From positions 558,001 through 622,000 of the forward strand of contig CM075989.1 of NCBI GenBank assembly GCA_038087875.1: a DNA stretch of 64,000 nucleotides, read 5' to 3'. The notes beneath the pieces were generated by a model, which did no database searches, was not told the DNA's origin, and saw only the letters and a list, made by a program, of their open reading frames with translations. The position numbers and the translations under genes were made by a program. This document shows positions 12,579 to 60,195 of this stretch, piece by piece. Position 1 is the stretch's first letter. Every line of letters starts with the position of its first letter. This DNA is from Malacoraja senta (taxonomy: Eukaryota).

Positions 12579-14683
12579 CCTTGTACCCTAATGCAATATT
12601 CCACCATTCACCCGTTTCCCCAAAGCAACCCATTCCCCAATGCAATATTCCACCACACACTCATAGCCCCTATCTGCGCAGGCGCTGCTGATGGCTTCCC
12701 GTTGTGATGCCCCTGATCCCCCCTCTTCCCCTCAACCCCCCCCCCCCACTCTGCCTCTTCCCATTCCACACCCCTCGCACTCACTCCATCCCCCTTCAAC
12801 CTCGCCCCCCATCCATTCTTAGCAGCTCTCCGGCAGCGCAGCCGTTCCAGCCCATAGGGTTCCCATTGTGACGTAGAACACACAGGTAATACTGCGCAGG
12901 CGCAGCTGACGGGCACGGAAAGTGGAAAAGGGATTTATTAATGCATAAATTGTAAATAACTCTTAAAATATAAAAATGTTAACGTTAAAGATGAGATTTA
13001 TTTAGCCCATTCTTTCTTTTGCATCTCGTTGTGTTCTGTAACCGGGGGAGGGGGGGCTTCAGGCGGGGTATGTCGGTGGCCAGCAGGGGGAGCGTGCTGC
13101 AGCCGGGGAAGGGGCACGGCTTCAGACGGGGGCTGACGAGGGACGGTGGGGGGAGCGTGCTGCAGCCGGGGAGTGGGACGGCTTCGGGCGGGGCCTGTCA
13201 GGAGCCAGTGGGGAAGGGGGGGGTGACCGCTGCCATGGCCTTCTGCTGCCATGACCCCTGCAGTGTGGTGGGGTGGGTGTGTGGTGGGGGTTTATGGGGG
13301 GAGGGGGTCTGTGAGGTATGGGTGTGTGGGGGGAGGGGGAGTGTGTGGGGTGTGAAGGGTTAGTGCTGCAATGGCCTACTGCTGCCATGGCCTACCGCTG
13401 TTTGGCGGGGTAGGTGTATGGCAGATGGGGTGTGGGGGATATGTGGGATGGGAAGGGAAGGGTGTGTGTGCGCGGGAGGAGTGTGGTGGTGAGGGTGCGT
13501 GGGGGAGGGGATGGGGAGTGTGTTTGGGAGGGGAAGCGGTGTGTGTGCGAGGGGGGAGGAGGGTTTGTGGGAGTGGTTGTGTGGGCGGGGGGTATGGGAG
13601 GGGGTGGGTGAGGGAGGGGGAGGGGGGGGTGTGGGCGAGGTATGGGAGGGGGGAGTTTGTGGGCAGGGGGGTATGGAGGCCAGGGTTGTTTGTGGGGGTG
13701 TTGGCGGGTTGTGTGTTGGGTGAAGGGGAGGGGGAGCAGCGAGCGTTGGGGAGCCGGAGAGGGGGTGGTGTGGGCGGGGGAGGGTTCAGTGTGTGGGGTC
13801 TTTGTGGGGGAGGGGGATGTGTGGGCAGAGGGATGTTGTGGGGGGAGGGGTGTTTACACGGGGGGTGTGGGGATGTGGGTGCATGGGGGAAGGGAGGAGA
13901 GGGTGTGGGGCAGAGGGGGTTTGTGGGGGGTTGTGAGGGGTGTGTGGGCGGGCCAGCGGGGGGGGGGGTGGGTGGGGGGGGGGTGGACAGGGGGGGGGTT
14001 GTGGAGGCGAGGGGGCAGGGAGGGGGTGTGGGGGATTGGTGGGGTGTTGTCGGGGGGAGGGTTAGTGTGGGCTGGGGGGGAAAGAGCTTGGAGAGAAGAC
14101 AGGGTTTGTGGGGGAGAGGGGCTATCACAGGGGAGGGTGGCGTGAGCCTGCAAGAGGGACAAGAGGGGAAGGGGTTGGAGCGGACGGTGCGATTTGTACT
14201 TACAGGGGTCGCTGGTCGCTTTGCCGCTTTGTCGCTGGTCGCTTTGTCGCTGGTTGCTTTGTCACTTTGTCACTGGTCGTTCTCCTCCGCTGGGATCAGA
14301 TTCTCCACTTTCCGTTTGGCGACATTTCCCGTACCGGGCTGGGCCGTTTCCGGTCCCTCCGAAAATGGAAACCTCCACTGGCCCTCCTCAGCTCCAGTAA
14401 AGATGCGATGGCGCAGGGAGGAGCGGACCGTCCCGCGGAGTGACAGGAGAAAAGACCAATCCATGCGGCGCTGAACGGCAGGAGAGGAGATTGATCTGTG
14501 CACGCGTGATTAATTTTTTTTTTAACCTCGCTAACTTTTACATTAGACCTCCGATCGGAACAAAACGTGGTGCAATCGCAGCACAGGAGAATGGCGAGTA
14601 AGCTGACGGAAAATCGTAGTGCTATCGTGTACAATTTTTGCGCAAATAGAATGACCGCGCAACCGGATGATAACAAGATCAGA
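12579..14683 (-). mobile_element. Non-autonomous Helitron-like element with G-rich interior; both termini eroded
   Basis: 14430-14683 is homologous to the subterminal blocks at 36600-36845 and 58240-58454. 12580-12615 resembles 55215-55250, which lies next to a Helitron 3' hairpin. Confidence 0.6.
13260..14180 (+). repeat. G/T-rich low-complexity tract
   Basis: Runs of G separated by T/A. Confidence 0.9.
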
Positions 14684-14738
14684 GATAGAGAGATAGAGAG
14701 ATAGAGAGATAGAGAGATAGAGAGATAGATAGATTGAT
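14684..14738 (+). repeat. (ATAGAGAG)n microsatellite
   Basis: Direct reading. Confidence 0.95.
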
Positions 14739-15047
14739 TCCTCCTTTCCTTATCGGCACCATGTGGCACCAGCAAGTGGCTGCCTCGCCAACAATCTGTC
14801 TGTCCTTTCTTCTGTTTTTGTTATTTTAAATACGAATTAAAGAGTGTTGAAGAGTATGTTTAATATTCATTAATTTTGTTTTATGTGGGGATTTGGGGGA
14901 GGGAGCTAGGGGCAACTCAAATTTCACTGTACCTTAATTGGTGACGATGAATTTGTGACAATGAACTGACTGAAACCTACAAACCTTGAAACCTTGATAC
15001 ATTTTTATCTTCTTTTCAACTTGAGCTTTTGTCACTATCTCCACACA

Positions 15048-24254: not shown

Positions 24255-25735
24255 TTCTTTCTTGAATGGGAAAAATAAAAAAAAATTAAAAACATTTAAA
24301 AAATATAAATGGGAACAATATTGTGTTCAAAAGAATATTCAATATGATACTGTAGTTATTGAAAATGTGTTAGAGTTTTATCTACACTTTATTATGTTGA
24401 GGGTCTTAGCTATAGTGCTATCAATACAGCTAGAAGTGCTTTGTCGACATATCTTGTAATAGGTATAACGGACACAAAGTATAGGTTCTCACCCTCTCAT
24501 ATCTAGGTTGATGAAAGGAATCTTTAATTACAAACCGCCTAAGCCTAGGTATATGGTAATCTACGATGTAAGCATTGTTCTTAACATGCTTCGTCATTGG
24601 ATCCCTGTCACGTCTATAACTTTGTTAAAATTAACCATGAAATTGGCTATGCTAATGGCATTGGTGTCAGTACAGAGAGTGCAGACTTTGCAAAAACTTC
24701 AGTTAGAAAGAATGGAAGTGACTACAGAGAATGTTCTGTTTTATATTTATGACCTGCTCAAACAAAGCAGGCCAGGTGTGACAGGATTTAAGATGGTGTT
24801 CTCAGCATATCCTACAGCTCCAAGTTTATGTGTAAGGACACATTTGTTACATTACATTGAAGCCACAAGGGCTTTAAGACAAGAAGAAACAGGATTATTT
24901 GTCAGTTACAAGAAGCCAACATAAAAGAGTGGCAGTTCAGACTATCTCAAGGTGGTTAAAGCAAGAGTTGGTTCAGGCAGGAATTAACATTTATGTGTTT
25001 ACATCTCATTCCACTAGCGCAGTAGCAACATCCGCGGCAAGGGCGATGGACGTTCCCATCGACCATATATTAAAAGCCGCAGGTTGGAAAAATGAACTTG
25101 TGTTTCAGCAATACTACCATCGGCCGATTGCCGATGGAGGGCTGTTTGCCAACTCAATATTGAGTGCTGTTGCTAGTGTTTAAAGTCTGTTTTCAATACT
25201 GTTTAATTCTGTTTCGTTTGTTGCCCCTACATTAAGAGGGTTTATTGGTTGTTTTATGACCAAAAATAAAACTGTTTTGGTTTTGCATGATATGCAATGT
25301 CATGTTTACAGCATTATTAATGATACTCAGAGTCAATCGATGCAGTGAGAAGCCGGGATTTTGATCTGCGGCATAAAAATCACAGAGCTTTAAAATCTTC
25401 ACGTAGTCACTCACGTGACTCTGAAGTAAAATAGTAAGATTAAACGAGAACTTACCAGTTTGAAGTTTGATCTTTATTTTATGACGAGTTAAGTTGGTGA
25501 TTACGTGCCCGCCACGCCCAACCCTCTCTCATAGAAAAAAGGTCATAATGGTAGTTCTCATGTTGATCATCTTAATATGTTACTTCAATTATGGTGTTGT
25601 CTGATTTCATACCGCTGCTTTGAAGATTGACGCGCATGCGCCCTGACGGGTCTTCTTCACGTAATCACCAACGTAACTCCTCATAAAATAAAGATCAAAC
25701 TTCAAACTGGTAAGTTCTCGTTTAATCTTACTATT
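24255..25735 (+). mobile_element. DIRS-type tyrosine-recombinase retrotransposon, 5'-truncated (YR pseudogene + ICR + right terminal repeat)
   Basis: GLSYSAINTARSALS, MKGIFN.KPPKPRY, QRVQTL, KQSRPG, TISRW, HSTS, AGW..F..YY are DIRS YR motifs, with frameshifts. A 78-bp inverted repeat lies at 25430-25507/25658-25735. Confidence 0.9.
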
Positions 25736-28149: not shown

Positions 28150-31100
28150 GACTTCTGGTGGCGCCAGGTTACACTACCAGACGCACACCTAGCTCCGCTC
28201 CCGAAAAATTAGCGATTTTTCACGTTAAAACGGGTGTACAGGTCGGAACCGATTTAAAAACCTTACCGGAGCTTCTGGTCGCCACGCTGATGACGTCATC
28301 AGTAAGCACGATGATTTAAATGGTGGTTTAAGGACTTTTAAATGAAAAGACTGTCTCCAGCTCAGAGTCCTCAGAAAACAGTTAAAAAACAGCTGCTGAA
28401 AAGCCTGAAGAATCCTGAAGAAGTTACCTCTGAAGTTCCTGAAGTGGCTGCAGAAATGGCTACAAGATCTAAGACAGATCTGGCTAAGGATAAAGAATTT
28501 GAGGATTTGAAGAAATCAGTGAGAGATATGAAAGATGAAATTTTGGATGAAAATAAAATTTTGATGGGAAAAATGATGGAAAAAATCGAAAAGATGATGG
28601 CGAATTCGAGTGCTGGTAATCAGAAGGTTATCGATTCACTTGGTATTACAAATAAATGAATTGATGATGTGAAAGGTGAACTATCGGGGAGAATTGATAA
28701 GGTGGAAGAAGCTACTACGGACAGGTTCACGGCTGTGCTTGAAACAGTGGCTGCAAGTATGGCTACAATCATGGAAATGGAGAAAAATATGGCTCGAATG
28801 GCTGAAGACATGGTGAAAATGAGGCAAGAACATGATCAAATGAAGCAAGAACATGATCAAACTTCAGGACAGATGGCGACTCAACTGGGGAAAGTTTCAG
28901 ACAAATGCCTGGACATGGAAGCTCGTTCTAGATGCCAGAATTTAAGAATTCTTGGAGTCTCAGAGGGAGCTGAGGGAAGGGACATTCGTGAGTTTGCTAT
29001 AGGATTACTCAAACAACTGCTTAATCTCCCCAAAGAACCCAAAATTGAAGTGGCACATCGAGTACCGAGATTTAAACCAAGATCTCAAGCAAGACCAGCC
29101 CACCAACGACAGATTATTGTGAAATTTCAGGACATTTCAGAACTGGAAGAGGTGATGAGTAAAATCAAATATGGAATGCAACTGAGGCTTGATAACGACA
29201 CTATCAAAATATTCAGGGACTATCCGTATGAAATTGTGCAAAAGAGAAATCAGTTCGCAAAGGCAAAAGACATTTGAAGGGGTATTCAAGATGTTAGATA
29301 CGGTGTCATTTATCCTGCTAAGATATGCATTACTTATGGGGGACGTGAGAGATCTTTTGTAAACCCGGAGGATGCGTACAGATATGCCCAGAGCATCGTG
29401 GAAAAGTAGCGAATACATGGAGGATATGCACAAACTTTTTTATTAGAATTCCACAGTTAATGGAGGATCTGAGGCTAAGAATCAGTTCTTGTAGGGTTTA
29501 AAAAAAACTTATTTGAAGAATCCTCCAAGCTTAGGATGGCTAGACTTGTTATCTGTGGAATTTTAACTCAAGGACTTTCTGTGTTACAAACGAAGCAAAC
29601 AGCCGAGCTGAAGAGAGTGGACTATACCAGAAGCATTAACTGTTTAAGAGATTAAAATCATAAATCATATTGTAAGAACTAATCCTATTAACAATTTAAC
29701 AATTTAATAAGCTAACAATATTAAACTAGAAATAGTAACGGACACTAACAAGAAAGAACAATGAACTAACATAACTAACACAAATTTTTACTAAATCTAA
29801 ACATTATCTATAACTGGGAGGGGGGGAGGAGAAACGAGCAACTGGCTTAGATCCAGGAGCACGTTTCACGTTAACCCCTTCAACCAACAGTTGATTATTA
29901 TTGAAGGTAAAATCATTTGTTTAATAATTAGTAATTAGTAGATAAAATTGTTACATATATATGATATGTTATAACGAAATATATAGGGTAAATCTGTATT
30001 ATATATCTGATTGCGAGGCCCCGTCCTATTATGTTATGATTAACCAATGGTGCGGAGTTATTTGTTTAACATCAACAATGGAAGTCATTACAAGGTTTTC
30101 TCCCACCTACAGGTGGGCCACTTGTTACAGTGTCGACCATTTTAGACACTGTATTTTCACTTTTTCAATTTTTTTAAAATTATTATTACCACATCAAGTC
30201 ACATGTTCGTGTTTTTTGTTTAGTGATAAGCGTAAAAGGGATATGCCAACAAAACTTAGCAATGCAAAGGTTCCCCCAATACCCAAAGACCTGAGATATG
30301 GATGCACCGTAAGATTTAAAGGTATTATAACTATTCAAAATGCAAGATGTTAAACAAAAGAACCTAGGAGGAGTCACATTCTGCAGTTGGAATATAAGAG
30401 GTATTAATGAACCTATTAAAAGGGGTAAGATATTAGCTCAGCTGAAATTGTACAATCCTGACATCATTTTTTTTACAAGAAACCCATCTAAAATCCCAGG
30501 ATCAAGCTAGGTTGAGGGCGAATTGGATAGGTCAAACATATCATTCTTCATATACTTCGAAATCTAGAGGTAAGTCAATCATTATTCGAAAAGGCATACC
30601 ATTCAAAGCAAAGAATACCATAACAGATAATGAAGGGAGATATTTGATAGTTACCGGAGAAATTCATGATACTCCAATTACCTTGGTAAATATATACGCG
30701 CCTAACTTTGATAATCCTCATTTTTTCAATAACATTCTGAACATAATCGCAGAATTTAATTATCAAAATGTTATAATAGGAGGAGACTTTAACTGTGTTT
30801 TAGATCCGTATTTAGACAAATCTAGCCAAAAACAGAGAGGTAATACGAAATCTAAAACTAATGAACTCTTAAATACTTATATAAATAATACCAATATAAC
30901 AGATGTTTGGAGAATTGCTAATCTGACTGGCAGGGAATACTCGTTTTACTCAATGGTACACAAAACATACTCATGTATAGATTATTTCCTGGTGGATACA
31001 AAATTAATCCCTCACACTGTGAACCCATTATACCATACAAATTCGATTTCAGATCATTCACCACTAACTTTCTTTTTAAAACTGGAAAGAATGTCTCAGA

Positions 31101-34100: not shown

Positions 34101-34460
34101 AAAGTACCGATGTCAGGTAAAGGGGGATGAAAGGTGGTGAGTTGGTATACCCCATTTGCGAGATGCTTATAATAAAGTACTTGTGCTTCTCTTCTTTCTC
34201 TTTTGTTTCTTCTTTAGGGTCTATCTCTTAATCTTTTCTTTCCAATCTCTTTTCTACAGGGTCTCTGTTCTTTCCTGTTGACACGTTTTTACACTTTCAC
34301 TACTTTCCCTCACTTTCTCTTCTTTCTTAATTTCAACCTTCTCTCTTTATTAGTTTTTAAAAATGATGGACACATTAATTGTAATAAGATATACGTGATG
34401 AGTACTAATGTAATTTGTTGTAATGTAATGTACTTCTAATAAATAAAATTTAAAAAAAAA
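28150..34460 (+). mobile_element. Full-length but inactivated L1-type LINE (ORF1 28342-~29410, long spacer, ORF2 ~30343-34082)
   Basis: 5' GACTTCTGGTGGCG start. Coiled-coil ORF1 'EARSR.QNLRILGV.EG..EVAHR'. ORF2 EN/RT/Cys motifs with stops and frameshifts. AATAAA and poly-A. Degenerate TSD aattggcaagcc/aattggcgaacc (28138/34463). Confidence 0.95.
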
Positions 34461-34699
34461 GTAATTGGCGAACCAGGCCATGATGCAACCAGTCAGGATA
34501 CTTTCTACAGTGCATCTGTAGATGTTTGTTAGAGTACTGGGTGACATGGCAAATTTCCCTAAACTTGTAAGCAAGTAAAAGTGCTACCGCTTTCTTTGTG
34601 ATTGCATTATGTACCGGGCTCAGTACAGGTCATCCGAGAGGTAATGCCCAGGACGTTAAAAATGCTAACCTGCTGACCGATCCAGACCTTATCTGTCCA

Positions 34700-36845
34700 A
34701 TTCTTGAGGGAATGTGGTGATGTGGGGGAGGGAGTGTGTGTGGGGGAGGGGGGAGGGTCGGTGTGGTGGGGGTGTGTGTCTGGGGGAGGGGGTTGTGGGG
34801 GTGTGGGGAGATGGGGGGTGTAGGGGAATGGTGGGTGTGGGGGAGGGGGGTGTGGGGGAGGGGGGTTGTGGGGGTGTGTGGTGGATGGGAGGTGTGGGCC
34901 AGGGGGGGTTGGGGGAGAGGGATGTGGGGGAGGAGAGGTGTGGCAGAGGGGGATGTGGGGGGTTGTGGTGTGGGGGTGGGCTGGTGTGGGGGGGAGGGGG
35001 CGGTGTGGGGGGGATGGTGTGGGGGGAGAGAGTGGTGTTGGGGGAGGGGTGGTGTTGGGAGGAGGCGGTTGTTTGGGGGTTGGGAAAGGGTGTTGGAGTG
35101 GGCGGGGTGGTGTGGGGTGTGGTGGTGTGGGGGGGAGTGGGTGGTGTAGGGGAGGAGGTGGTGTGGGGTAGAGGGGGTTCGTGTGGGGGGAAGGTGGTGG
35201 TGTGAGGGGAATGGTGTGGGGGGGAGGGGGTAATGTGGGTGGAGGGGTGATCTAGTGGGGAGGAGGTGGTTTGGGGGGAGGAGGTGGTGTGGGAGGGAGG
35301 GGGTGGTCTGGAGTGGGTGGGGTGGTGTGAGGGGGGGGTTGCAGGGTGGAGGAATTGGGAGGTGTAAAGGGGGGTGTGGGTTTGTGGGGGGAGGGGTGTG
35401 TGGAGTGGAGGGGGAGGGGGGAGGGGGGAGGGGGGAGGGGGGAGGGGAAGAGGTGAAGGTTACAGGTGGTGTGTGTGGGAAGGAGGGGGAGGGGAGGGGG
35501 AAGGGGGGAGTGTGAGGGGGAGGTTGGGTGGGGGAGGGACTCCACTTAGCGGCCACCGGCCACAGCTCCACATAGCACCTACCGACTCCACATTGCTGCT
35601 TTCCCTGAAGAGGATGGTAGGAGGTTGCAGGGTGACCTGGATAGGTTGAGCGAGTGGGCAGATACATGGCAGATGCAGTATAATATAGATAAATGTGCGG
35701 TTATCCACTTTGGCGGCAAAAACAAGGGGGCAGATTATTATCTCAATAGGGTTAGTTTAGGTAAGGGGGAGGTGCAGCGAGACCTGGGTGTCCTTGTACA
35801 CCGGTCACTGAAAGTTGGCTTACAAGTACAGCAGGCAGTGAAGAAAGCTAATGGAATGCTGGCCTTCATAACAAGAGGATTTCAGTATAGGAGTAAAGAG
35901 GTTCTTCTGCAGTTGTATAGGGCTCTGGTGAGACCACATCTGGAGTATTGTGTACAGTTTTGGTCTCCTAATTTGAGGAAGGACATCCTTGTGATTGAGG
36001 CAGTGCAGCGTAGGTTCACGAGATTGATCCCTGGGATGGTGGGGCTGTCATATGAGGAAAGATAGGAAAGACTAGGCTTGTATTCACTGGAGTTTAGGAT
36101 GAGGGGGGATCTTACAGAATCATATAAAATTATAAAAGGACTGGACAAGCTAGATGCAGGAAAAATTTTCCCAATATTGGGCGAGTCAAGAACCAGGGGC
36201 CACAGTCTTAGAATAAAGGGGAGGTCATTTAAGACTGATGTGAGAAAAAACGTTTTCACCCAGAGAGTTGTGAATTTATGGAATTCCCTGCCACAGAGGG
36301 CAGTGGAGGCCAAATCACTGGATGGATTTAAGAGAGTTAGATAGAGCTCTAGGGGATAGTGGAGTCAAGGGATATGGGGAGAAGGCAGGCACGGGTTATT
36401 GATTGGGGACGATCAGCCATGATCATAATGAATGGCGGTGCTGGCTTGAAGGGCCGAATGGCTTCCTGCACCTATTTTCTATGTTTCTATGTTTCCCGCC
36501 TCCACACAGCGGCATTCCCGACTCCACTCTTGCGGACCCAAATAGCACGGCTTGTTTAGTCAGCCCTGCTTCAGTGACTTTAATCTTCAGCGGGTGCCAG
36601 AAGAGGCGTTACCTTCATTGTGACCGACAGGCGAGAAGACCAATCTGCTGATGTCACGATTTTTTAAACCTTCGTAACTTTTCTCATATTTCACCAATCA
36701 GAACAAACCTTGGTGTCTTGGACTAGAAGAGAACATTGAGTAAGGTGGCAAAAAATCCTAGTGATATAGCGTAGCGTTTTTGCACAAATTTAATGACAAT
36801 GCAGACCGGAAGTGCTCAAGATGAGAGTTTTAGTAATAGTATAGA
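34700..36845 (-). mobile_element. Non-autonomous Helitron-like element with G-rich interior, interrupted by a CR1
   Basis: Minus strand begins A|TCTATACTATTACTAAAAC at 36845. Subterminal block is shared with the other copies. 3' hairpin not found, so the left boundary is approximate. Confidence 0.65.
35606..36491 (+). mobile_element. 5'-truncated CR1 LINE
   Basis: ORF2 C-terminus, (TTTCTATG)n tail, TSD TTTCCC at 35600/36492. Confidence 0.92.
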
Positions 36846-37080
36846 TAGATAGAAGGTAGAAGATGATAGATAGACTGACAGAAGATGATAGATAGACTGG
36901 CAGAAGATGATAGATAGACTGACAGAAGCTGGAAGATAGACTGACAAAGGATGGAAGGATAGATGGATAGATGGATAGATGGATAGATGGATAGATGGAT
37001 AGATGGATAGATGGATAGATGGATAGATGGATAGATGGATAGATGGATAGATGGATAGATGGATAGATAGATAAATAGAT
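36846..37080 (+). repeat. (GATA)/(GATGGATA)n microsatellite with a 24-bp higher-order unit
   Basis: Direct reading. Confidence 0.95.
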
Positions 37081-38089: not shown

Positions 38090-38397
38090 CCCTCTCAACC
38101 TCTTCCAACCCCTTCACCCCTCTCTATCTCTGTAAACCCCACCAACTATACACCCCTCTATCTCTGTAAAACCCTCCAACCCCTACACCCCTGTATGTAA
38201 ACATCTCCAACTCCTACACCCCTCTATGTAAACCTCTCCAACCATTACACCCCTCTATGTAAACCTCTCCAACCCCTACACCCCTCTATATCTCTGTAAA
38301 GGCCTCCAACTCCTAAACCCATCTTTATATCTCTTAACCCCACCAACCCCTACACCTATCCATGTCCCTGTAAATACCCCTCCCTGTCGCTGTAACC
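38090..38397 (+). repeat. C-rich minisatellite (~31-37 bp, ccaacccctacacccctctatgtaaacct)
   Basis: Degenerate tandem copies. Confidence 0.85.
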
Positions 38398-40500: not shown

Positions 40501-42960
40501 CCTGATGGTTTTCATCCCAGGGTACTTAAGTAGGAGGCTCTAGAAATCATGGACGCATTGTGTGATCATTTTCCAATGTTCTATAGATTCAGGATCAGTT
40601 CCTGTGAATAATGTTATTCCACTTTTTAAGAAAGGCGGGAGAGAGAAAACAGTGAATTATAGACCAGTTAGCCTGACGTTGGTGGTGGGGAAGATGCTTG
40701 GGTCAATTATAAAAGATGAAATAGCAGCATATGTAGATAGCAGTAACAGGTTCAGTCCGAGTCAGCATGGATTTATGAAGGGGAAATCATGCTTGACTAA
40801 TCTTCTGGAATTTTTTGAGGATGTAACTAGGAAAATGGACAAGGGAGAGCCAGTGGATGTAATGATAATAATAATGATGGATTGGATTTATATAGCGCCT
40901 TTCTAATACCCAAGGCGCTTTACATCGCATTATTCATTCACTCCTCAGTCACACTCGGTGGTGGTGAGCTACTTCTGTAGCCACAGCTGCCCTGGGGCAG
41001 ACTGACGGAAGCGTGGCTGCTAATCTGCGCCTACGGCCCCTCCGACCACCACCAATCACTCACACACATTCACACACATTCACACACATTCACACGCAGG
41101 CAAAGGTGGGTGAAGTGTCTTGCCCAAGGACACAACGACAGTATGCACTCCAAGCGGGATTCGAACCGGCTACCTTCCGGTTGCCAGCCGAACACTTAGC
41201 CCATTGCGCCATCTGTCGTCCAACCTGGAGTGTACCTGGACTTTCAGAAAGCCTTTGATAAGGTCCCACATAGCAGATTAATGGGCAAAATTAGGGCACA
41301 TGGTATTGGGGGTAGAGTGCTGACATGGATAGAAAATTGGCTGGCAGACAGGAAACAAAGAGTAGGGATTAACGGGTCCCTTTCAGAATGGCAGATTACT
41401 ATCTACATGGTGACAAGTTGGGAAAAGGGGAAGTACAAAGGGATCTGGGTGTACTTGTTCATCAGTCAATGAAAGTAAGCATGCAGGTACAGCAGGCAGT
41501 GAAGAAGGCCTGTATAACAAGAGGAGTTGAGTATAGGAGCAAAGAGGTCCTTCTGCAGTTGTATAGGGCCCTAGTGAGACCACACCTGGAGTATTATGTG
41601 CAGTTTTGGACCTCTCATTTCAGGACCAAACATCCTGCCCCCCTCCTCTTTACCCCAGCCCCCAAATAATCATGCTGTGCACATATTCTTGCTATTGAGG
41701 GAGTGCAGCATAAGTTTACAAGATTAATTCCCGGGATGGCGGGACTGTCATATACTGAGAGAATGGAGTGGCTGGGTTTGTATACTCTGGAGTTTAGAAC
41801 GATGAGAGGATATGTTATTGAAACATATAAGATTATTAAGGGTTTGGACACACTAGAGGCAGGAAACATGTTCCCAATGTTGGGGGAGACCAGAACAAGG
41901 GGCCACAGTTTAAGAATAAGGGGTAAGCCATTTAGAACATAGGCAAGGAAACACTTTTTCTCACAGAGAATTGTGAGTCTGTGGAATTCTCTGCCGCAGA
42001 GGGCGATGGAGGCCGGTTCTCTGGATATTTTCAAGAGAGAGCTAGATAGGGCTCGATAGGGCTCTTAAATATTATGGAGTCAGGGGATATGGGGAGAAGG
42101 CAGGAACGGGGAACTGATTGGGGATGATCAGCCATGATCACATTGGGTGGCGGTGCTGGCTCGAACTTAAAGAAAGGTAACTTTGAGGGTATGAGACGTG
42201 AATTGGACAAGATTGACTGGCAATTAGTTCTAAAAGGGTTGACGGTGGATATGCAATGGAAGGCATTTAAAGACTGCATGGATGAACTACAAAAATTGTT
42301 CATCCCAGTTTGGCAAAAGAATAAATCAGGGAAGGTAGTGCATCCGTGGATAACAAGGGAAATCAGGGATAGTATCAAAGCAAAAGATGATGCGTACAAA
42401 TTAGCCAGAAAAAGCAGCATACCAGAGGACTGGGAGAAATTCAGAGACCAGCAGAGGAGGACAAAGGGCGTAATTAGGAAAGGGAAAATAGATTATGAAA
42501 GAAAACTGGCAGGGAACATAAAAACTGACTGCAAAAGTTTTTATAGATAAGTGAAGAGAAAGAGATTAGTTAAAACAAATGTAGGTCCCTTGCGGTCAGA
42601 AACAGGTGAATTGATCATGGGGAACAAGGATATGGTGGACCAATTGAATAACTACTTTGGTTCCGTCTTCACTAAGGAAGACATAAATAATCTGCCGGAA
42701 ATAGCAGGGGACCGCGGGTCAAAGGAGATGGAGGAACTGAGTGAAATCCAGGTTAGTCGGGAAGTGATGTTGGATAAATTGAATGGATTAAAGGCCGATA
42801 AATCACCAGGGCCAAATAGGCTGCATCCCAGAGTACTTAAGGAAGTAGCTCCAGAAATAGTGGATGCATTAGTGATAATTTTTCAAAACTCCTATTTTCT
42901 ATGTATCTATGTATCTATGGCCGAATGACCTGCTCGTGCACCTATTGTCTATAGTCTATC
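40501..42960 (+). mobile_element. Decayed CR1 LINE with nested SINE and nested internally deleted CR1 (42163-42920)
   Basis: RT motifs [17 protein letters not shown] and C-terminal motifs; two separate 3' tails. Confidence 0.9.
40861..41220 (-). mobile_element. tRNA-derived CORE-type SINE with L2-like tail
   Basis: Minus strand has A box TGGCGCAATGG, B box GGTTCGAATCCC, CORE-like TGTGTCCTTGGGCAAGACACTT and tail AAAGGCGCTATATAAATCC..(ATT)n. Confidence 0.85.
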
Positions 42961-43213: not shown

Positions 43214-46200
43214 CATAGATACATAGATACATAGAAAATAGGTGCAGTAGGCCATTCGGCCCTTCGAGCCTGCACCGCCATTCAATATGATCATGGCTGA
43301 TCATCCAACTCAGTATCCCGTACCTGCCTTCTCTCCATACCCCCTGATCCCTTTAGCCACAAGGGCCACATCTAACTCCCTCTTAAATATAGCCAATGAA
43401 CTGGCCTCAACTACCCTCTGTGGCAGAGAGTTCCAGAGATTCACCACTCTCTGTGTGAAAAAGATTTTCCTCATCTCGATCTTAAAGGATTTCCCCCTTA
43501 TCCTTAAGCTGTGACCCCTTGTCCTGGACTTCCCCAACATCGGGAATAATCTTCCTGCATCTAGCCTGTCCAACCCCATAAGAATTTTGTACGTTTCTAT
43601 AAGATCCCCTCTCAATCTCCTAAATTCTAGCGAGTATAAGCCAAGTCTATCCAGTCTTTCTTCATATGAAAGTCCTGACATCCCAGGAATCAGTCTGGTG
43701 AACCTTCTCTGCACTCCGTCTATGGCTATAATGTCCTTCCTCAGATTTGGAGACCAAAACTGTACGCAATACTCCAGGTGTGGTCTCACCAAGACCCTGT
43801 ACAACTGCAGTAGAACCTCCCTGCTCCTGTACTCAAATCCTTTTGCTATGAAAGCTAACATACCATTCGCTTTCTTCACTGCCTGCTGCACCTGCATGCC
43901 TACTTTCAATGACTGGTGTACCATGACACCCAGGTCTCTCTGCATCTCCCCATTTCCTAATCGGCCACCATTTAGATAATAGTCTGCTTTCCTGTTTTTG
44001 CCACCAAAGTGGATAACCTCACATTTATCCACATTATACTGCATCTGCCAAACATTTGCCCACTCACCCAGCCTATACAAGTCACCTTGCAGTCTCCTAG
44101 CATCCTCCTCACAGCTTAGTGCCATCCGCAAACTTGGAGATGTTGCCTTCAATTCCCTCATCCAGTTCATTAATATAAATTGTAAATAGCTGGGGTCCCA
44201 GCACTGAGCCTTGCGGTACCCCACTAGTCACTGCCTGCCATTGTGAAAAGGAACCGTTTACTCCTACTCTTTGCTTCCTGTTTGCCAGCCAGTTCTCTAT
44301 CCACATCAATACTGAACCCCAAAACCGTGTGCTTTAAGTTTGTATACTAATCTCTTATGTGGTACCTTGTCGAAAGCCTTCTGAAAATCCAGATACAACA
44401 CATCCACTGGTTCTCCCCTATCCACTCTACTAGTTACATCCTCGAAAAATTCTATAAGATTCGTCAGACATGATTTACCTTTCGTAAATCCATGCTGACT
44501 TTGTCCAATGATTTCACCACTTTCCAAATGTGCTGCTATCCCATCTTTAATAACTGACTCTAGCAGTTTCCCCACTACCGATGTTAGACTAACTGGTCTG
44601 TAATTCCGCATTTTCTCTCCCCCTCCCTTCTTAAAAAGTGGGGTTACGTTTGCTACCCTCCAATCCTCAGGAACTACTCCAGAATCTAAAGAGTTTTGAA
44701 AAATTATCACTAATGCATCCACTATTTCTGGAGCTACTTCCTTAAGTACTCTGGGATGCAGCCTATCTGGCCCTGGTGATTTATCGGCCTTTAATCCATT
44801 CAATTTACCCAACACCACTTCGCGACTAACCTGGATTTCACTCAGTTCCTCCATCTCCTTTGACCCGCGGCCCCCTGCTATTTCCGGCAGATAAATTATG
44901 TCTTCCTGAGTGAAGACGGAACCAAAGTAGTTATTCAATTGGTCCGCCATACCCTTGTTCCCCATGATCAATTCACCTATTTCTGACTGCAAGGGACCTA
45001 CATTTGTTTTAAATAATCTCTTTCTCTTCACATATCTATAAAAACTTTTGCAGTCGGTTTTTATGTTCCCTGCAAGCTTTCTTTCATAATCTATTTCCCC
45101 TTTCCTAATTAAGCCCTTTGTCCTCCTCTGCTGGTCTCTGAATTTCTCCCAGTCCTCTGGTATGCTGCTTTTTCTGGCTAATTTGTACGCATCATCTTTT
45201 GCTTTGATACTATCCCTGATTTCCCTTGTTATCCACGGATGCACTACCTTCGCTGATTTATTCTTTTGCCAAACTGGGATGAACAATTTTTGTAGTTCAT
45301 CCATGCAGTCTTTAAATGCCATCCATTGCATATCCACCGTCAACCCTTTTAGAACTAATTGCCAGTCAATCTTGGCCAATTCACGTCTCATACCCTCAAA
45401 GTTACCTTTCTTTACGTTCAGAACCATTGTTTCTGAATTAACAATGTCACTCTCCATCCTAATGAAGAACTCAACCATATTATGGTCACTCTTGCCCAAG
45501 GGGGCACGCACGACAAGACTGCTAATTAACCCTTCCTCATTACTCAATACCAGGTCTAGAATAGCCTGCTCTCTCGTTGGTTCCTCTACATGTTGGTTTA
45601 GATAACTATCCCGCATACATTCTGAGAAATCCTCTTCCTCAGCACCACTGCCAATTTGATTCACCCAATCTATATGTAGATTGAAGTCACCCATTATAAC
45701 TGTTTTGCCTTTGTTGCACGCATTTCTAATTTCCTGTTTGATGCCATCCCCAACTTCACTACTGCTGCTAGGTGGCCTGTAGACAACACCCACCAGCGTT
45801 TTCTGCCCCTTAGTGTTTCGCAGCTCTACCCATACCGATTCCACATCCTCCAAGCAAATGTCCTTCCTTTCCACTGCGTTAATCTCCTCTCTAACCAGCA
45901 ACGCTACCCCACCTTCTTTTCCTTTCTCTCTATCCCTCCTGAATATTGAATATCCCTGGATGTTCAGCTCCCAGCCTTGGTCACCCTGGAGCCATGTCTC
46001 CGTGATCCCAAGTATATCATAATCATTAATTGCTATCTGCACGTTCAACTCATCCACCTTATTACGAATGGTCCTTGCATTGAGACACAAAGCCTTCAGG
46101 CTTGTTTTTACAACGTTCTTACCCCTTATACAATTATGTTGAAAAGTGGCCCTTTTTGATTTTTGCCCTGGATTTGTCTGCCTGCCACTTTTACTTTTCA

Positions 46201-47434
46201 TCTTGCTACCTATTGCTTCCGCCCGCATTTTACACCCCTCTGTTTCTCTGCTCACCCATTTAAGAACCCCACCACCTCTTATTCTCTGTTTATTATTGTT
46301 TTCTTCTTTCCCCCCTACATGTTGGGTCTGAGTGCTTTCCTTCTCTGCCTCCTGCCTCACACACTGTCTAATAGCATTCTCTATTTGAGTCCCTCCCCCC
46401 AACCATTCTAGTTTAAAGTCTCCCCAGTAGCCTTTGCAGATCTCCCCGCCAGGATATCGGTCCCCCTCAGGTTCAAGTGCAACCCATCCTTTTTGTACAG
46501 GTCGCACCTTCTACAAAAGAGGTCCCAATGATCCAGAAATTTGAATCCCTGCCTTCTGCACCAGTCCTTCAGCCACACATTTATCCTCCAACTCGCTCCA
46601 TTCCTACTCTCACTGTCACGTGGCACAGGCAGTAATCCCGAGATTGTTACCTTTGCTGTCCTTCTCTTTAACTCCCCTCCTAACTCCCTAAATTCTCCTT
46701 TCAGGACCTCTTCTCTTTTTTTACCTATGTCATTGGTACCTATATGTACCACGACCTCGGGCTCCTCTCCCTGCCCTTTCAGGATATCTTGGACATGTTG
46801 GGACACATCACAGACCCTGGCACCAGGGAGGCAAACTACCATCCGGGTCTCCCGACTGCGTCCACAGAATCGCCTGTCTGACACCCTAACTATAGAGTCC
46901 CCTATTAGTATTGCCCTCCTCTTCTTTTCCTTGCCCTTCTGAGCAACAGGACCGGTCTCTATACCGGAGGCCCGGCCGCTGTCGCTACCCCCAGGTAGGC
47001 TGTCCCCCCCAATAGTGCTCAAACAGGAGTACTTATTGTCAAGGTGTACAGCCACCGGGGTACTCTCTAGTCCCTGCCTGTGCCCCTTGCCTCTCCCAAC
47101 CGTGATCCACTTGCCTGCCTCCTGTGGTCTTGGAGTGACCACCTCCCTGTAACTCCTCTCAATGACTTCCTCGCTCTCCCAGACCAGACGGAGGTCATCG
47201 AGCTGCTGCTCCAGGTTCTTAATACGGTCCATTAGGAGCCCCATCTCGATACACCTGGCGCAGATGTGGACGTCTGGAGGGCTATCAGACTCCATGACTT
47301 CCCACATCTGACATCCAGAACAGTAAACTGCCCTGGCCCTCATACTCCCCTTACCTAGGATACAATACAAAACAAACTGCTACAATACAAAACAAACTGC
47401 TACAATACAAAACAAACTGCTACAATACAGTACA
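43214..47434 (-). mobile_element. Near-intact CR1 LINE: ORF1 (46408-47370, Zn-finger/coiled-coil + SGNH esterase) and ORF2 (EN+RT, disrupted near 44100-44320)
   Basis: ORF1 CxxC..CxxC, GDS, PGA, HIGTND, DGLH. A 733-aa open ORF2 segment plus a 304-aa C-terminal frame. (TATCTATG)n tail. Confidence 0.95.
47361..47434 (+). repeat. 20-bp tandem repeat (tacaatacaaaacaaactgc x3 + partial) at the CR1 5' end
   Basis: Direct reading. Confidence 0.9.
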
Positions 47435-53437: not shown

Positions 53438-54061
53438 CAGCTTGTATGTGTTTATGTCCAACTGTCTGTAAATTCTCATGATGGGGAATAAACTCCATCA
53501 CTGCTACAACACTCTCTCCGTACCCCTGAGCTTCGCCCATTTGCTCCCTTCCCACCCACGTGCCTGTCCAAATGTCTTTTAAATGTTGTTATTGTACCGG
53601 CCTCAATCACTTCCTCAGCTCGTCATATATACCCTCCACCTTTGTGTGAAAAACCTGTCCCTCGGGTCCCCTTTAAATCTTCCCCATCTTACCTTAAACC
53701 TGTGGCCTTTAGTTTGAGACTCCCTACAATGGGAGGGTATCTAAAACCTGTCTCTGGTATGAACAACCTGCTTTCAGCTGGTGCTTGCTGTATCTGTCAC
53801 TGCACTCCACCCACCACTGTTCTCACAGGCTGCCAGAGAGACCTTGAGGTCTTCCCCTGGGTCAGTGCATGCGAGTTGCAGCAGCTGACCCTCAGTAAGA
53901 GAGTCAGTTCATGTGCAGTTCACGTTTTCAGAGGCAGAAAAGCACGAGAAGGTATTCACACACTTTGTCATCCCACAATGCCCAGGATGTGATTCCTACA
54001 CAATGGAGTCTGGAAGATCCACAAGCCCTCCAGTGCCTAATGTTGTTCCTTCTCTCCTCAG

Positions 54062-54427
54062 CTGCAGTGTCGAAGGAGTGGACAATCAACGCTCCATTAG
54101 ATGTGACAGCACAGAGGGGTCTGTGTGCCCGGATTCCGTGCCACCACAGTTACCCGTCGCGTCTGAATAAAATAACACCGGTTGGAATCTGGATTAACGA
54201 TGAGGACTGGAACTCTCAGTCTATCGCTTTCCACTCCGGGGATCGCAGTAGAGAATCACCAAGGTTTCACCATCGGACCCGGCTGTCTGCCGTCCTGAGA
54301 GACGGCAACTGTTCTCTGGTTATAGACAACATCACACAGGAAGATGAAGGTCCTTATCATTTTAGAACTGAATTTAACAGCAAAGATCGTTTCAGCTTCT
54401 TCCCTGTAACACGGCTGCATGTTTCTG
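54062..54427 (+). CDS. Siglec/MAG-like gene, N-terminal V-set Ig exon (sialic-acid-binding domain)
   Basis: Acceptor 'ttccttctctcctcag|', donor 'TCTG|gtaagt', phase 1-1. Translation EWT..GLCARIPC..W..RTRL..GNCSLVI..DEGPYHFRTE..RFSF shows the Siglec three-Cys pattern, no F-strand Cys, and the essential Arg in YxFR. Confidence 0.93.
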
Positions 54428-55479
54428 GTAAGTGTTCTGTATAATCAGTCAACAACTGATATTCAGGCAGTAGGAAGTAACACAAACTGCGCTTCTGCCC
54501 AATGAACACAAACGATAGCTCAGTATCACAGTGTTTGATGGTTAAACACTGGCATTGCCCTCCAGTCCAATTTCACCACAATGCTGATAATTCTTCCATT
54601 ATCATCAGTAAAACATGAGCACTATATGCAGGTATGTTACCAGCTGTGATACGTGTTGCTAATCACACATTGCTCCAGTAATGTACACAGCAAAGTGGGA
54701 CTCAAGCTTGTAATCTACTTTGCAATAGCTCAGGTGTTACAATATACTTTATATACAATCAAGAGTCATCTCTGGTGAAAGAGGAAATTTCAGGCTGTGA
54801 TGTTGGAATTTTCATCAGCAAGTGTGAGATGTTGAACTTTGCAAAGTCGAATGCAAGGGGAATTTAATGGCAAGATCCGTAACAGCATTGAAAATGCAAA
54901 GGTTTCTTGGAGTCCAAGCCCATAACTCTGAAGGTGGCAACACAAGTAGATAGTGTGGTAAAGAAGGCTTTTGGTACGCTTGCCTTCATTCATAGGAGCA
55001 TTGAGTATAAGAGTCAGGAAGACATGATGAAGCTTTTGGGGGGAATTTGAATTTCTTTCTCTGGCACATTGGATATTGAGAGGATACCTGATAGAAGTAT
55101 ATGAAATTATAATAGACATAGAAAGGATAGACAATTAGAATATTTTTGCTCGGAAGGAAATATCAAATACTGGACTAAGTGGGACCTGTTGGGTCCCATG
55201 TTCACACGGGAGGGCTGGTCCCCCAACGCAATATTCCACCTCTCCACCAATTCCAATATTGGTGGCCAGTGGGGTGGGGGGGGGGGGGGTGGGCTTTCTG
55301 GACCGCTAGTATGGGTATTGTGGGCTGAAGGGACTGGTTTCCAGAGGGCTAGTATGGACATTGTGGGCCAAATGGATTCTTGGGGTGGCACCTCAGTCAC
55401 TCAAGCATGATGTGCTGGCAGCTCACTCATGACTGGTGGGCTAGCAGTTGACTCATGGCTATTCTTTGAAATTCCTTTT

Positions 55480-55826
55480 CAAGCAGGATGCAAGGCCACC
55501 AAATTCAAGTGCAGTTTCCGACCACTTCAAGCAGGATGCCAGGCCACCAAATTCAAGTGCAGTTTTATGCCACTTCAAGCAGGGTGCAAGGCCACCAAAT
55601 TCAAGTGCAGTTTCATGCCATTTCAAGGAGGGTGCGAGGCCACCAAATGCTAGTGCTGTTTCATGCCATTTCAAGCACGGTGCAAGGCCACCAAATTCAA
55701 GTGCATTTTCACACCATTTCATGCAGGGTGCAAGGCCACCAAATTCAAATGCTGTTTCATACCATTTCATGCAGGGTGCAAGGCCACCACATTCAAATGT
55801 AGTTTCATACCATTTCAAGCAGGGTG
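55480..55826 (+). repeat. 48-bp minisatellite, 7 copies + partial
   Basis: Unit caagcagggtgcaaggccaccaaattcaagtgcagtttcatgccattt. Confidence 0.95.
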
Positions 55827-56244
55827 AAACCACCATAAAACCACACAAAACACCACATAAACACCACATTCGCAGTTCAGTAGACATTCAGTGTGTTCAG
55901 TTGATTCACAGCTCAGACAGTCGTGACCTCTCCCTCCCCCATCTTGCAGAAACTGAGCCACACCCACACGTCCGGGTTTTATAATCCCTCCCCCTCCCAC
56001 TGGAAGGGGCGTGGCCTTCATGGGATGATTGACAGGAGAGAGATTCTCAACATTTTTTTAAACACTAATAACACTTTTACTTTTCATTGATGGAAAGAAT
56101 CCTCTGCACCTGATGAGCAGAGTGGGACTGAGTAAGGTGGCCAAAAATCACAGCCGTAAGTAGTAGCATTTGATCTAGAATCAATATACAGTGCAAACAG
56201 GAAGTTGTCAAGTTTACACCGACAACCATTTGCAGTGCAGCATT

Positions 56245-57910
56245 TATTTTTATTTTATAATTTTTTTATTAGAAGTAAGTACAATAATGTGGCACCAAGG
56301 TGCCTAATATATATTGACATGTTACATTTTATGTACAGCTTCATATTTTTTTCTTTAACAATAAAAGAGAGAAAGAAAAAATAGGTAATAAAGAAATAGA
56401 AAAACATGTGATGTCTAGGTGTGTGAAAAGAAAGAGGGGGGAAAGAGGGGAAGAAAAAGAAAAAAAGAAGAAAAAAAAGAGGGAGAGAAAGAGAAGTAGT
56501 AGAGAGTAAGATATTGTAGGAGATAGTTATTTATATTCTTGACCATCCTTCACCCAGTCCTGAAACAGTTGGTTTCTACGATTTTGTTGCACCATATGCT
56601 TCCAAGAAGTCGATAAATGGAGACCAACTCGTTAAGAATTGGTCTGTTTTATCTGTTAGGAGGAATCGCATTTCTTCAAGATGTGCGGTTTGCAACATGT
56701 TTGAAATCCACATTTTAAGCATTGGTATGGGTGTATTTTTCCAAAATTTAAGTATAAGTTTTTTCGCCGTTATTAACACATAATTAAAAAATGAATTTTG
56801 AAATGTGTTCAGTTTGTTCCCGTCTTCCGTTACTCCAAGTATAATCATTTCAGTGTTAGGCTCCATTTTTATCTTGAATAATTTTGTAAATATTTCAAAG
56901 ATATCGCTCCAGAATTTATGAAGTTTTATGCAGGAAACAAAAGAGTGTGTTATAGTGGCATTTTGAGATAAACATTTATCACAAATGGGAGAAGTATTTG
57001 GATAAAATTTATTCAGTCTAATTTTTGAACAATATAATCTATGTAGAATTTTGACTTGAATTAAGTTATGTCTTACATTAATCGAACATTTGTGTATATA
57101 TATCAAATGCTTTACCCATGTTTCTTTTGTGATTTTTATCATTAATTCTCGTTCCCAATCTTCTCTAAGTACCTCTGTCGATGGTAGTTCTATGTTTAAA
57201 ATACTATTATATAAATATGATATTAATTTCTGTGAGTCAGCCTTAATATTCATTGCTTCTTCCAGTGGATCTAAAGTTAAAGTTTGATATCTTTGTATAT
57301 ATTTCTTCATGAAGTCGCAGATCTGAAGGTATTTAAAATATTGGTTATTTTTCAGTTTAAATTTTAATTGTAATTGTTGGAATGATAACAGATTTTCCCT
57401 TTCATACATATCGCTGATCCTTTTAATTCCAATTCTTTCCCATTGGTTATATGTTTTATCGGTGAGAGATGGTTTAAATGAAGGATTATTCACTATTGGC
57501 GTTAACAGTGATAGGTTTCTTAATTCTCCATTCGTATCCATTCTGTCTGTTGGGTAGGACTGTCCAACCAATAAATTATATTTTTAATATGCACTGCCCA
57601 GTAATAATACAAAAAGTTCGGATGTGAAAGTCCCCCAGCGTCTTTGGGTTTACACAGATGTTTTCTTTGAATTCTATGTGATCTATAGTCCCAAATAAAG
57701 TTAGTAATGTTAGAGTCTAGTTTTTTGAAGTTTTTTTATATATAATGGTATAGATTGGAATAGGTATAATATTTGTGGTAAAAAGATCATTTTTATAGCG
57801 TTTATTCTGCCTATTAATGACAACGGAAGTTTTTTCCAGAATTTAATCAACACGTTCAATTTATTTAATAAGGGTGTAAAATTAGCATTAAATAATTATT
57901 TGGATTTTCT
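56245..57910 (-). mobile_element. 5'-truncated L1-type LINE
   Basis: ORF2 C-terminus paralogous to the other L1s, poly-T end, candidate TSD AGCATT (56239/57911). Splits the 41-bp array. Confidence 0.92.
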
Positions 57911-57917
57911 AGCATTG

Positions 57918-58091
57918 CAAAGCAACCCCCACCAACAACCATTTGCCGTGCAGCATTTCAAAGCAACCCCCACCAACAACCATTTGCCGTGCAGCATTTC
58001 AAAGCAACTCCCACCGACAACCATTTGCCGTGCTGCATTTCAAAGCAACCCCCACCGACAACCATTTGCAGTGCAGCATTTCAAAGCAACC
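57918..58091 (+). repeat. 41-bp minisatellite, 4 copies + partial (another partial at 56218-56245)
   Basis: Unit caaagcaacccccaccaacaaccatttgccgtgcagcattt starts at 57918, 57959, 58000, 58041. Confidence 0.95.
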
Positions 58092-58499
58092 AGATTTTCA
58101 TTTTCAAACCACATTAAGTGCACTCACAGTTGAGTAGGCATGTGTTCAGTGTTATTCACAGCTCAGAGAGACGTGACCCTCTCGCTTCCTCCATCTTGCA
58201 GAGACTGAGTGAGGCACAACACTTCCGGGTTTTATAGTCCCTCCCCCCTCGCACCAGCAGAGAGAATCTTAACATTTTAAAACATTAATAACTCTTTTAT
58301 TTTTCATCAATGGGAAAATTCCTCTTGTCCTGCCCAGCGGAGGGGGACTGAGTAAGATGGCTAAAAATCACAGCCGTAAGTGACAGCGTTTTTTCTAAAA
58401 TCCCGAAACAGAAAAAACAGGAAGTGGTCAAGATCTTACTTTTAGTAATATAGACTAGAGGGCATAGTTTAAAGTAACAGGGGCAAAGCTTAACGGAGA

Positions 58500-60195
58500 C
58501 TAGACCAAGGGGGAACCGTTGGGTCCCATCCCCTCAACATGCGGTTGCGGAGGGGCGGGCATGTGGCGTCAGACACACACTAACCACCGCACCCACACAC
58601 ACTAACCACCCCACACACACACACACTAACCATCCCCCTTGATATTATATTATAGAGGGGGGGGATGGAGAGGGGGGAGGGGTGGGATGGAGGGGCGGGA
58701 CAGATGGGCGGGACGGAGGGGGGAGGAAAGGGGGAGAGGAGAGGGGGGAGTGGGTTGAGGAGAAGGGGATGAGAGGGGGAGGAGGGGGAGAGGGGGGAGG
58801 TGAGGGGGAGGAGTGGCGGGAGGTGAGGGGGAGGAGTGGCGGTGGGGGGAGAGAGAGGGGAAGGGGGAGAGGGAGGGGGAGGGATGTGGAGAGGGGGGTG
58901 GGGAGGGGTGTGGAGAGCGGGTGAGGGGGGAGAAAGGGGAGATGGATGGGGGGGAGGGGGGTAGAGGGTGGAGAGAGAGGGGGAGAGGGCGGTGATGGGG
59001 AGGGTGCAAGGGGGGAGGGGGAGAGAGAGGGGTGGGGGGAGAGAGAGGGTTGGGAGGAGGGGGAGGGGGTGAGGGGGGTAACGGGGAGAGAGGGGGAGGG
59101 GGAAGGGGGAGGTGGAAGGGGAAGGGGGACGGGGGCTGGGGAGGGAGGTGGAAAGGGGGGTGCAGAGAATGGTGGAGGAGGGGAGGAGGGGAGGTGGGGA
59201 GGAGGGGAGAGGAGGGAGAGAAGAGGTGGTGGGGGATGGAGGGGAAGGGGAGGAGAGGAGGAAGGGTGGGGGATGGGGAGGGTGGAGGGTGGGGGAGGGG
59301 GGGAGGAGTGAGAGAGGGAGAGGGGGAGAGAGAGGGGGAGAGGGGGGCAGAGGGGGAGAAAGGGGGAGAGGAAGGGTGGAGCGAATTGGAGAGGGGGAGA
59401 GGGTGGGAGGGGGAGGGGGGAGTGGGAGAGAGGAGGGGGGGTTGAGGGGGAGGGGGAGAGATGGTGGAGGGGAGAGGGGGAGTCGGGGAGAGAGAGGGGG
59501 GGAGAGGAGAGGGAGAGGGGGAGAGGGGGAGAGGGGGAGAGGACGGGGAGAGGAGGGGGGAGAGGGGAGATTGAGGTAGTGGAGGGGGAGAGGAGGGGTG
59601 GGGGAGAGAGAGGGAGAAGGCGTACTTCAACTCGGCGAGCGGACAGCGGGCCTCGGTAGCGCTCGGGACATCGCGAGACCTCGGAAACCCAACCAAATTA
59701 CTGCGTTTCAGCGGCTTCAATCCATAGCCCTGGGGGGGGGAGATCAGCTGGGCTGCAGGCGGTTCGGGGTGTACGGCCGTCCGAGTGCGAGTCAACTGCG
59801 AGGTTCGGCGAACAAATGACTGCGAGTCGAGGGGAGGGGGGTGCAGTTGGTGGAGACATAACTCGCAGCGCGTGGAAAAAATGCCCAGCAGGCTGCCTGT
59901 TGAAAACACTGCGCAGCGGGCCGCGAGGGGCAAAGCCATTGTGACATCATCAGAACGTTAGCTTTAAAACATATTTCATTTTTGTGAACAATTTTAATAA
60001 ATAACTCAAGAAATAATGAATCAAATTTTCAGTTGAGGCGATTTTTGAGATCACGAGGTAAATCTCTATCTGAATATGTAAACATTTCACCGTTAACGCG
60101 TTGTGTTTTCGAGGAAATGTGAATCACAGACAAACAAGACACACACACACAACTAAATACATCGACATCCAAGATCAGTTTTATAATTATAGAGA
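58500..60195 (-). mobile_element. Complete non-autonomous Helitron with ~970-bp G/A-rich interior
   Basis: Minus strand reads A|TCTCTATAATTATAAAAC...GGGACCC-AAC-GGTTCCC-CCTTGGT-CTAG|T. The host CR1 rejoins as 'aacggagA|Tgtgcagggcaag' with no TSD. Confidence 0.88.

Follow-up and report, generated by a model that had tools for sequence, protein, structure and literature searches.

Probable non-autonomous Helitrons carrying minisatellites and G-rich tracts in a 64-kb window of the Malacoraja senta genome

Canonical Helitrons (HLE1) begin with 5′ TC and end with 3′ CTRR, have a palindrome of 16-20 nt about 11 bp from the 3′ end, and insert between A and T without duplicating the target (PMC4067079). 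The palindrome of Helraiser is 19 bp in length and lies 11 nt upstream of the 3′ end (PMC4778049), and it is the element's own (top) strand that is transposed (PMC5876387). Composite Helitrons, formed by bypass of an end or by fusion of neighbours, are described in bats (PMC4778049, PMC4224331), and minisatellite-filled Helitrons in frog, zebrafish, bivalves, flies and bats (PMC12001565). HLE1 elements are on record in cartilaginous fish, with two entries from Amblyraja and one from Callorhinchus. They were counted by HELIANO in four of eight such species, numbering 11,154 in Leucoraja erinacea, 4,818 in Mobula birostris, 1,651 in Hypanus sabinus and one in the fourth (PMC11417382 supplement). 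We have analyzed a window of 64,000 nt (positions 558,001 to 622,000 of contig CM075989.1, assembly GCA_038087875.1), and find four insertions (E1 to E4) that are very probably non-autonomous canonical Helitrons, forming one family by their shared 3′ end and subfamilies by their 5′ blocks and interiors.

The closest described elements are the Helibat/Helraiser derivatives and Heli1Xen1. Like the complete elements E3 and E4 they have TC with an AT-rich start, a hairpin followed by CTAG and no target duplication, and the likeness extends to AT-rich sites, high copy number and chimeras made from neighbouring ends (PMC4778049, PMC12001565, PMC4224331). It is a likeness of descriptions and not of aligned sequences, and E3 differs in having a CCAG end and a G|T site. 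The long G-rich interiors found here are not seen in the accessible descriptions of those elements. Helitron-1_AmRa and Helitron-2_AmRa of Amblyraja radiata are RepHel-encoding HLE1 elements (PMC11417382), to which ours are likened by class and not by sequence; if the host is a batoid, these are likely the autonomous partners. Four short terminal motifs gave no match in the supplement to PMC11417382, from which terminal sequences of the AmRa elements were not available.

Two further groups are similar in content. Heli2Xen/Helitron-N2_XT and Helitron-N1_DR are non-autonomous and consist mostly of minisatellite arrays spread by the element, although with a unit of 166 bp in place of 48 and 41 bp (PMC12001565); Helitron-N2_XT is moreover an HLE2 (PMC11417382), whereas E3 and E4 have HLE1 ends. 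Cg_HINE of oyster and DINE-1 of Drosophila have modular flanks, central repeats and two arrays in series (PMC7492417), but they also have subterminal inverted repeats and TT sites (PMC4067079), and E3 and E4 have neither. An earlier, sequence-only reading of the window had put the family forward as something undescribed. This goes too far, as repeat arrays, unrelated cores and chimeric ends have all been published (PMC7492417, PMC12001565, PMC11417382 supplement). We found no description of this particular family, or of G-quadruplex (G4) tracts as Helitron cargo, in the accessible literature, a body that does not include Repbase, Dfam, subscription papers or the supplements of skate genome papers. 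The family is possibly in repeat libraries already.

Termini, insertion sites and class

The sequence-only reading divided the elements into five modules. Modules 3 and 4 prove to be one element (E3), with a single 5′ end at 58454 and a single 3′ end at 55170, so that four insertions remain (Table 1). The outer coordinates 36845, 58454, 58500 and 60195 were correctly placed, being true element ends by the flank join and the contig divergence described below. E2, E3 and E4 begin with TC followed by an AT-rich stretch, the 5′ end of E1 being obscured by a microsatellite. The 3′ ends of E3 and E4 are 84% identical over 31 bp (z 9.2), while their blocks and interiors are unrelated; in E4 the terminal CTAG follows a homologous but decayed hairpin. 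A motif scan of the window found this hairpin terminus twice, in E3 and E4. The proposal that the termini are shared thus holds for the 5′ end in three of four elements and for the 3′ end in two, and fails for the 3′ ends of E1 and E2. None of six C(C/T)RR-T sites to the left of these two elements, checked as alternative 3′ ends, has the family hairpin.

When E3 and E4 are excised, their flanks align to an uninterrupted long interspersed element (LINE) copy at 37040-37345 over 294 columns with 69% identity. The alignment spans both junctions with a 0-bp duplication for E3 and for E4, and restores one continuous LINE fragment. E4 is inserted at A|T and E3 at G|T, and E2 has A ahead of its TC. 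We note that a CTAG of the host LINE (58455-58458) abuts the 5′ TC of E3, mimicking a head-to-tail joint of Helitrons; the alignment with the LINE paralog suggests that it is target sequence.

Further evidence comes from public sequencing runs, of which 23 are listed for 55100-56240. Contigs of four of these were aligned over 54700-58640, a stretch that takes in E3 and a small 3′ part of E4. The region of module 3 is partly present in 20 of the 23 runs, from 13 studies; 14 runs carry 0.47-0.52 of its words, with seven organism codes among them. The runs listed include no RNA source, which has no bearing on expression. Right after position 58454 contigs diverge in all four runs (183, 239, 252 and 185 contigs) into unrelated AT-rich flanks, where agreement falls to 0.36-0.38 and the consensus begins with T on the plus strand, i.e. 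A ahead of TC. This sharp divergence identifies 58454 as the 5′ terminus of a dispersed family, with A before the TC. At the other end, the depth jumps 5.6- to 12-fold in the bin containing 55170.

The TC starts, the hairpin with C(T/C)AG ends and the absence of target duplication together place the elements under the definition of canonical Helitrons and not of Helentrons or HINEs (PMC4067079, PMC11417382, PMC4778049). The 3′ CTRR is exact in E4 (CTAG) and has one mismatch in E3 (CCAG), the 3′ palindrome is present, and the insertion sites agree overall with A|T (A|T in E4, A before TC in E2, G|T in E3). No end-to-end terminal inverted repeats were found among the top inverted pairs for E3 and E4, and exact inverted matches between the first 60 and last 90 nt do not exceed 6 nt in E3 and 4 nt in E4. 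With neither terminal inverted repeats nor target duplication, the elements do not resemble terminal-inverted-repeat transposons or miniature inverted-repeat elements (MITEs). Assignment as a non-autonomous HLE2/Helentron element (a HINE, like DINE-1) with central tandem repeats has in its favour a common layout of conserved flanks around variable repeats, together with the related flanks, unrelated cores and double arrays of Cg_HINE (PMC7492417). The 48- and 41-bp arrays do supply the central repeats, a feature that is not exclusive to HINEs. However, the inverted matches are no longer than those just given, the sites are A|T and G|T in place of TT or a T-rich site, and the ends are TC and C(T/C)AG. 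The analogy with HINEs therefore stands for architecture and not for membership; the assignment is largely refuted and we consider it extremely improbable.

A second alternative is a SINE-like retroposon (short interspersed element) read on the plus strand and moved by a CR1/L2-type LINE, the block being its 3′ end, GATA microsatellites its tails, and E1 and E2 5′-truncated copies. E1 and E2 do end on the plus strand in GATA-type microsatellites and have no left ends, and CR1-type LINEs can carry microsatellite tails and make little target duplication. Yet E3 and E4 have no tail and share the hairpin and C(T/C)AG end, the block matches no LINE end within the window, and the elements contain no tRNA-, 5S- or 7SL-type head and no tRNA or Rfam match. 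In other genomes, too, the boundary at 58454 is sharp, with unrelated sequence beyond. We regard the retroposon as very unlikely. The GATA-type microsatellites, with a 22-bp repeat, adjoin the 5′ ends of E1 and E2 (14681-14738 and 36844-37073), and may be either targets or outgrowths of the terminal motif.

Several observations weigh against the assignment as canonical Helitrons. E3 ends in CCAG rather than CTRR, at a G|T rather than an A|T site; the hairpin of E4 is decayed; the 3′ terminus is missing from E1 and E2, and the 5′ terminus of E1 is not clean. In addition there is no loose end at 55170 among the 24 listed (7,290 further ones being recorded), which leaves the depth step and the flank join as the evidence for the 3′ boundary. 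The rolling-circle character proposed from the sequence is supported by the termini, the insertion sites and the sharp boundary of the family in other genomes. No RepHel motif was found in six frames of the window, two loose HUH-like matches both lying outside the elements, and this is consistent with non-autonomy. The open reading frames (ORFs) of the elements are low-complexity read-throughs, and the four such frames scanned contained no Pfam family above the cut-off. All four insertions lie on the minus strand, as proposed for all copies; with four insertions a common strand has p=0.125, and we rejected an orientation bias.

5′ blocks, interiors and G-rich tracts

The subterminal block of ~250 bp that had been reported in four segments is confirmed. 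Its profile matches the minus strand at 14451-14699, 36601-36841, 56005-56223 and 58238-58454, the block is ~220-245 bp in length, and leave-one-out nhmmer searches recovered the held-out copies with E values of 8e-18 to 1e-29. There is no further nhmmer match below E 0.46 anywhere in the window. Pairwise identities range from 47 to 75%, with 75% between modules 3 and 4, 64% between modules 1 and 2, and 47-57% for the other pairs. The block of E4 (module 5) is different (type B, the others being type A). Its terminal ~29 columns are 79% like module 2, and past these nothing significant connects the two types. Motifs said to be shared by modules 1 and 5 do occur in both. The similarity of the two modules is marginal, however (z 2.3-3.4; 0, 7 and 5 of 300 shuffles as good at three gap settings), and it fell below the best shuffle in a separate comparison. 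E1 is probably a composite of two blocks. Promoter-like words (ETS, CRE, CCAAT and GC-box) occur in the blocks, yet are widespread outside them too. CpG observed/expected ratios are CpG-island-like at 14180-14680 in E1 (1.19) and at 59615-59950 in E4 (1.01), compared with 0.41 in the window and 0.19 in module 3.

The anatomy of E3 on the minus strand reads 5′ end, block, spacer, 41-bp array with an L1-type fragment, inner block, spacer, 48-bp array, hairpin and 3′ end. The inner block is fused to a 41-mer remnant at 56219-56244. Two nested LINEs had been overlooked in the modules. The CR1 fragment accounts for 0.89 kb of module 2 and is up to 95% identical to other copies in the window, and the L1-type fragment accounts for 1.67 kb of module 4, with 68-73% identity to two other window copies. 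These paralogs, which sit downstream of reverse transcriptase (RT)/endonuclease ORFs, belong to two related L1-type LINE copies at 9005-11450 and 28660-34467 on the plus strand.

Both tandem arrays are confirmed by repeat detection, and all matches to their units (7/7 for the 48-mer and 4/4 for the 41-mer) lie inside E3. Unrelated minisatellites, however, are found outside the elements at 38104-38356 (31 bp), 47361-47429 (20 bp) and 63111-63280 (33/64 bp). The G/T and G/A tracts are likewise real, and G4-prone DNA does lie in the elements. The four spans make up 14.4% of the window and contain 45 of its 46 canonical G4 motifs on the plus strand, together with 2,485 of 2,541 bases with a G4Hunter score of at least 2; two of four minus-strand motifs are within elements. 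The long tracts are all G-rich on the plus strand and hence C-rich on the element's own (minus) strand; a short further tract in E1, at 12698-12818, has the opposite sign.

The interiors had been described as interchangeable cargo, i.e. cassettes swapped freely between fixed termini in a Helitron. Consistent with this, the similar 31-bp 3′ ends of E3 and E4 are attached to unrelated interiors and blocks, in E1 a G/T tract is joined to a segment that resembles E3 near its 3′ end (z 8.4), and E3 contains two different arrays in series. The junction of inner block and 41-mer without the L1 fragment, found in one contig each of two runs (X2 and X3; side 22), points weakly the same way; it also hints, again weakly, that the composite is older than the L1 and recurrent. 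Against swapping, the interiors mostly follow the subtype of block. Modules 1 and 2 are alike in blocks and tracts, and modules 3 and 4 in blocks, spacers and array position. The G/T tracts of modules 1 and 2 have a 6-mer cosine of 0.87, compared with 0.62-0.66 for module 5, and their collinear alignment is marginal (3 of 100 token shuffles as good), with no collinear similarity of G-tracts among other module pairs by the same shuffles. Modules 3 and 4 have spacers that are 79% alike and short arrays at the same position. The joints listed in other genomes are mostly internal deletions or switches between two similar blocks, in a stretch (54700-58640) that contains no G-tracts and so cannot reveal an exchange of 48-mer for G-tract. 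A comparison of the 48-mer with the 41-mer, in which 120 of 1000 shuffles were as good, shows them neither as related nor as unrelated. Because the interiors follow the block subtype, free exchange of cargo is not demonstrated, and we consider it doubtful. Mosaicism is evident only at the ends, as a mixing of ends.

The depth of contigs bears on the relative abundance of these forms. In the four runs the outer block has 0.5-1.1 times the depth of the 3′ part of E3, the 41-mer bin has 5-8% of that of the block, and the 3′ bin of E4 has 2-26% of that of E3, depending on the run. This suggests that the 48-mer subfamily is dominant, and that others are minor and unevenly spread. The ratio of summed depth to that of single contigs is ~2-2.6 x 10^4, which is an order of magnitude only, since depth does not measure copy number. 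Searches of metagenome, viral and prokaryotic collections with terminal and block motifs gave no matches, which is to be expected of DNA from an animal.

Table 1. Coordinates of the elements, their parts and adjoining features in the window
Feature	Position	Strand	Remarks
E1, degenerate Helitron-like element	12580..14683	-	3′ terminus absent; 8-bp microsatellite replaces 5′ terminal motif
E1 segment resembling near-3′ part of E3 (55215-55254)	12580..12619	-	75% over 40 columns, z 8.4
E1 candidate second 5′-type block	12860..13010	-	weak likeness to E4 block, z 2.3-3.4; marginal
E1 G/T tract	13270..14160	+	G-rich on +; 14 canonical G4 motifs in E1
E1 5′ subterminal block, type A	14451..14683	-	leave-one-out E 8e-18
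E2, Helitron-like element	34700..36845	-	intact 5′ TC end, A before it; 3′ terminus absent
E2 G/T tract	34708..35540	+	11 canonical G4 motifs in E2
CR1 LINE fragment nested in E2	35606..36491	+	5′-truncated; 6-bp duplication at ends
E2 5′ block (type A) and 5′ terminus	36601..36845	-	leave-one-out E 1e-29
E3, complete composite element	55170..58454	-	5′ TC, 3′ CCAG, G|T site, no target duplication
E3 3′ hairpin	55180..55198	-	19-nt palindrome, 7-bp stem, 10 nt before 3′ end; DNA fold -7.5 kcal/mol
E3 48-bp tandem array	55477..55826		7.3 copies
E3 inner block, type A	56005..56212	-	no 5′ terminal motif; leave-one-out E 4e-25
L1-type LINE 3′ fragment nested in 41-bp array	56245..57910	-	6-bp target duplication
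E3 41-bp tandem array	57911..58091		4.4 copies
E3 outer block (type A) and 5′ terminus	58238..58454	-	leave-one-out E 2e-27; loose ends at 58454 in 4/4 runs
Host CR1-like LINE between E3 and E4	58455..58499	+	45 bp; flank join
E4, complete element	58500..60195	-	5′ TC, 3′ CTAG after partly decayed hairpin, A|T site, no target duplication
E4 G/A tract	58645..59615	+	19 canonical G4 motifs in E4
E4 5′ block, type B	59900..60195	-	clear type-A likeness only in terminal ~29 columns
Siglec/CD22/MAG-like immunoglobulin gene, V-set exon	in ORF 53899-54444	+	like CD22; Pfam
Same gene, C2-set exon	62629-63021	+	Pfam
Same gene, I-set exon	63486-63830	+	Pfam

Proposed mechanism and polarity of the G-tracts

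If the elements move as Helraiser does (PMC4778049, PMC5876387), a RepHel transposase encoded elsewhere would nick at the 5′ TC and peel off the minus strand. Transposition would pause at the 3′ hairpin, where the strand would be cut after CTAG and circularized, and the circle would then be inserted ahead of a T at a new site, with no target duplication. Since transposition would need only the ends, tandem arrays and G-tracts can grow freely in the interior, where they may amplify by slippage or unequal exchange and then be copied with the element. Composites such as E3 could result when the body of one copy acquires the 5′ part of a different copy, either through loss or bypass of a 3′ end or by deletion between neighbours. 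The LINEs inserted into E2 and E3 later.

All three long tracts in the window have the same polarity, C-rich on the putative peeled strand and G-rich on the template strand, while the type of tract differs between subfamilies that have different 5′ blocks (E1 and E2 compared with E4). A G-rich top strand would fold during displacement and so be selected against, and G4 structures on the template strand would promote slippage and growth of the tract. Of the features described here, only this one-strand cargo may be new. It is a speculative and, in our judgement, improbable extension that the family is the main carrier of long G4-prone tracts in the host lineage, with a polarity fixed by the mechanism of transposition.

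Genomic setting and significance

The window is rich in fragments of CR1-type and L1-type LINEs. A near-intact CR1-type LINE at 44306-47379 (minus strand) has an SGNH/GDSL esterase ORF1 and a 734-aa endonuclease-RT frame. The 151-aa frame at 24469-24924 (plus strand), which has no Pfam match, resembles part of the tyrosine recombinase of a DIRS-type element. ARAGORN gave one match in the window, a tRNA-Ala(ggc) at 41145-41219 (minus strand) outside the elements, which is probably the head of a SINE.

E3 and E4 occupy, in antisense orientation, the intron that separates the V and C2 exons of the Siglec/CD22/MAG-like immunoglobulin gene, adding about 5 kb to it. The picture is of a Helitron family with high copy number and several subfamilies, which disperses minisatellites and G-rich tracts and has carried them into the intron of a Siglec/CD22-like gene as well. 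The retroelement-dominated picture of cartilaginous-fish-like genomes is corrected only modestly by this, because HLE1 elements of skates and rays have already been counted. If the polarity of the G-tracts is true across thousands of copies, it would tie the mechanism of transposition to the genome-wide placement of G4-prone DNA, and would allow the handling of G4 structures on either strand by a Pif1-type RepHel to be tested directly.

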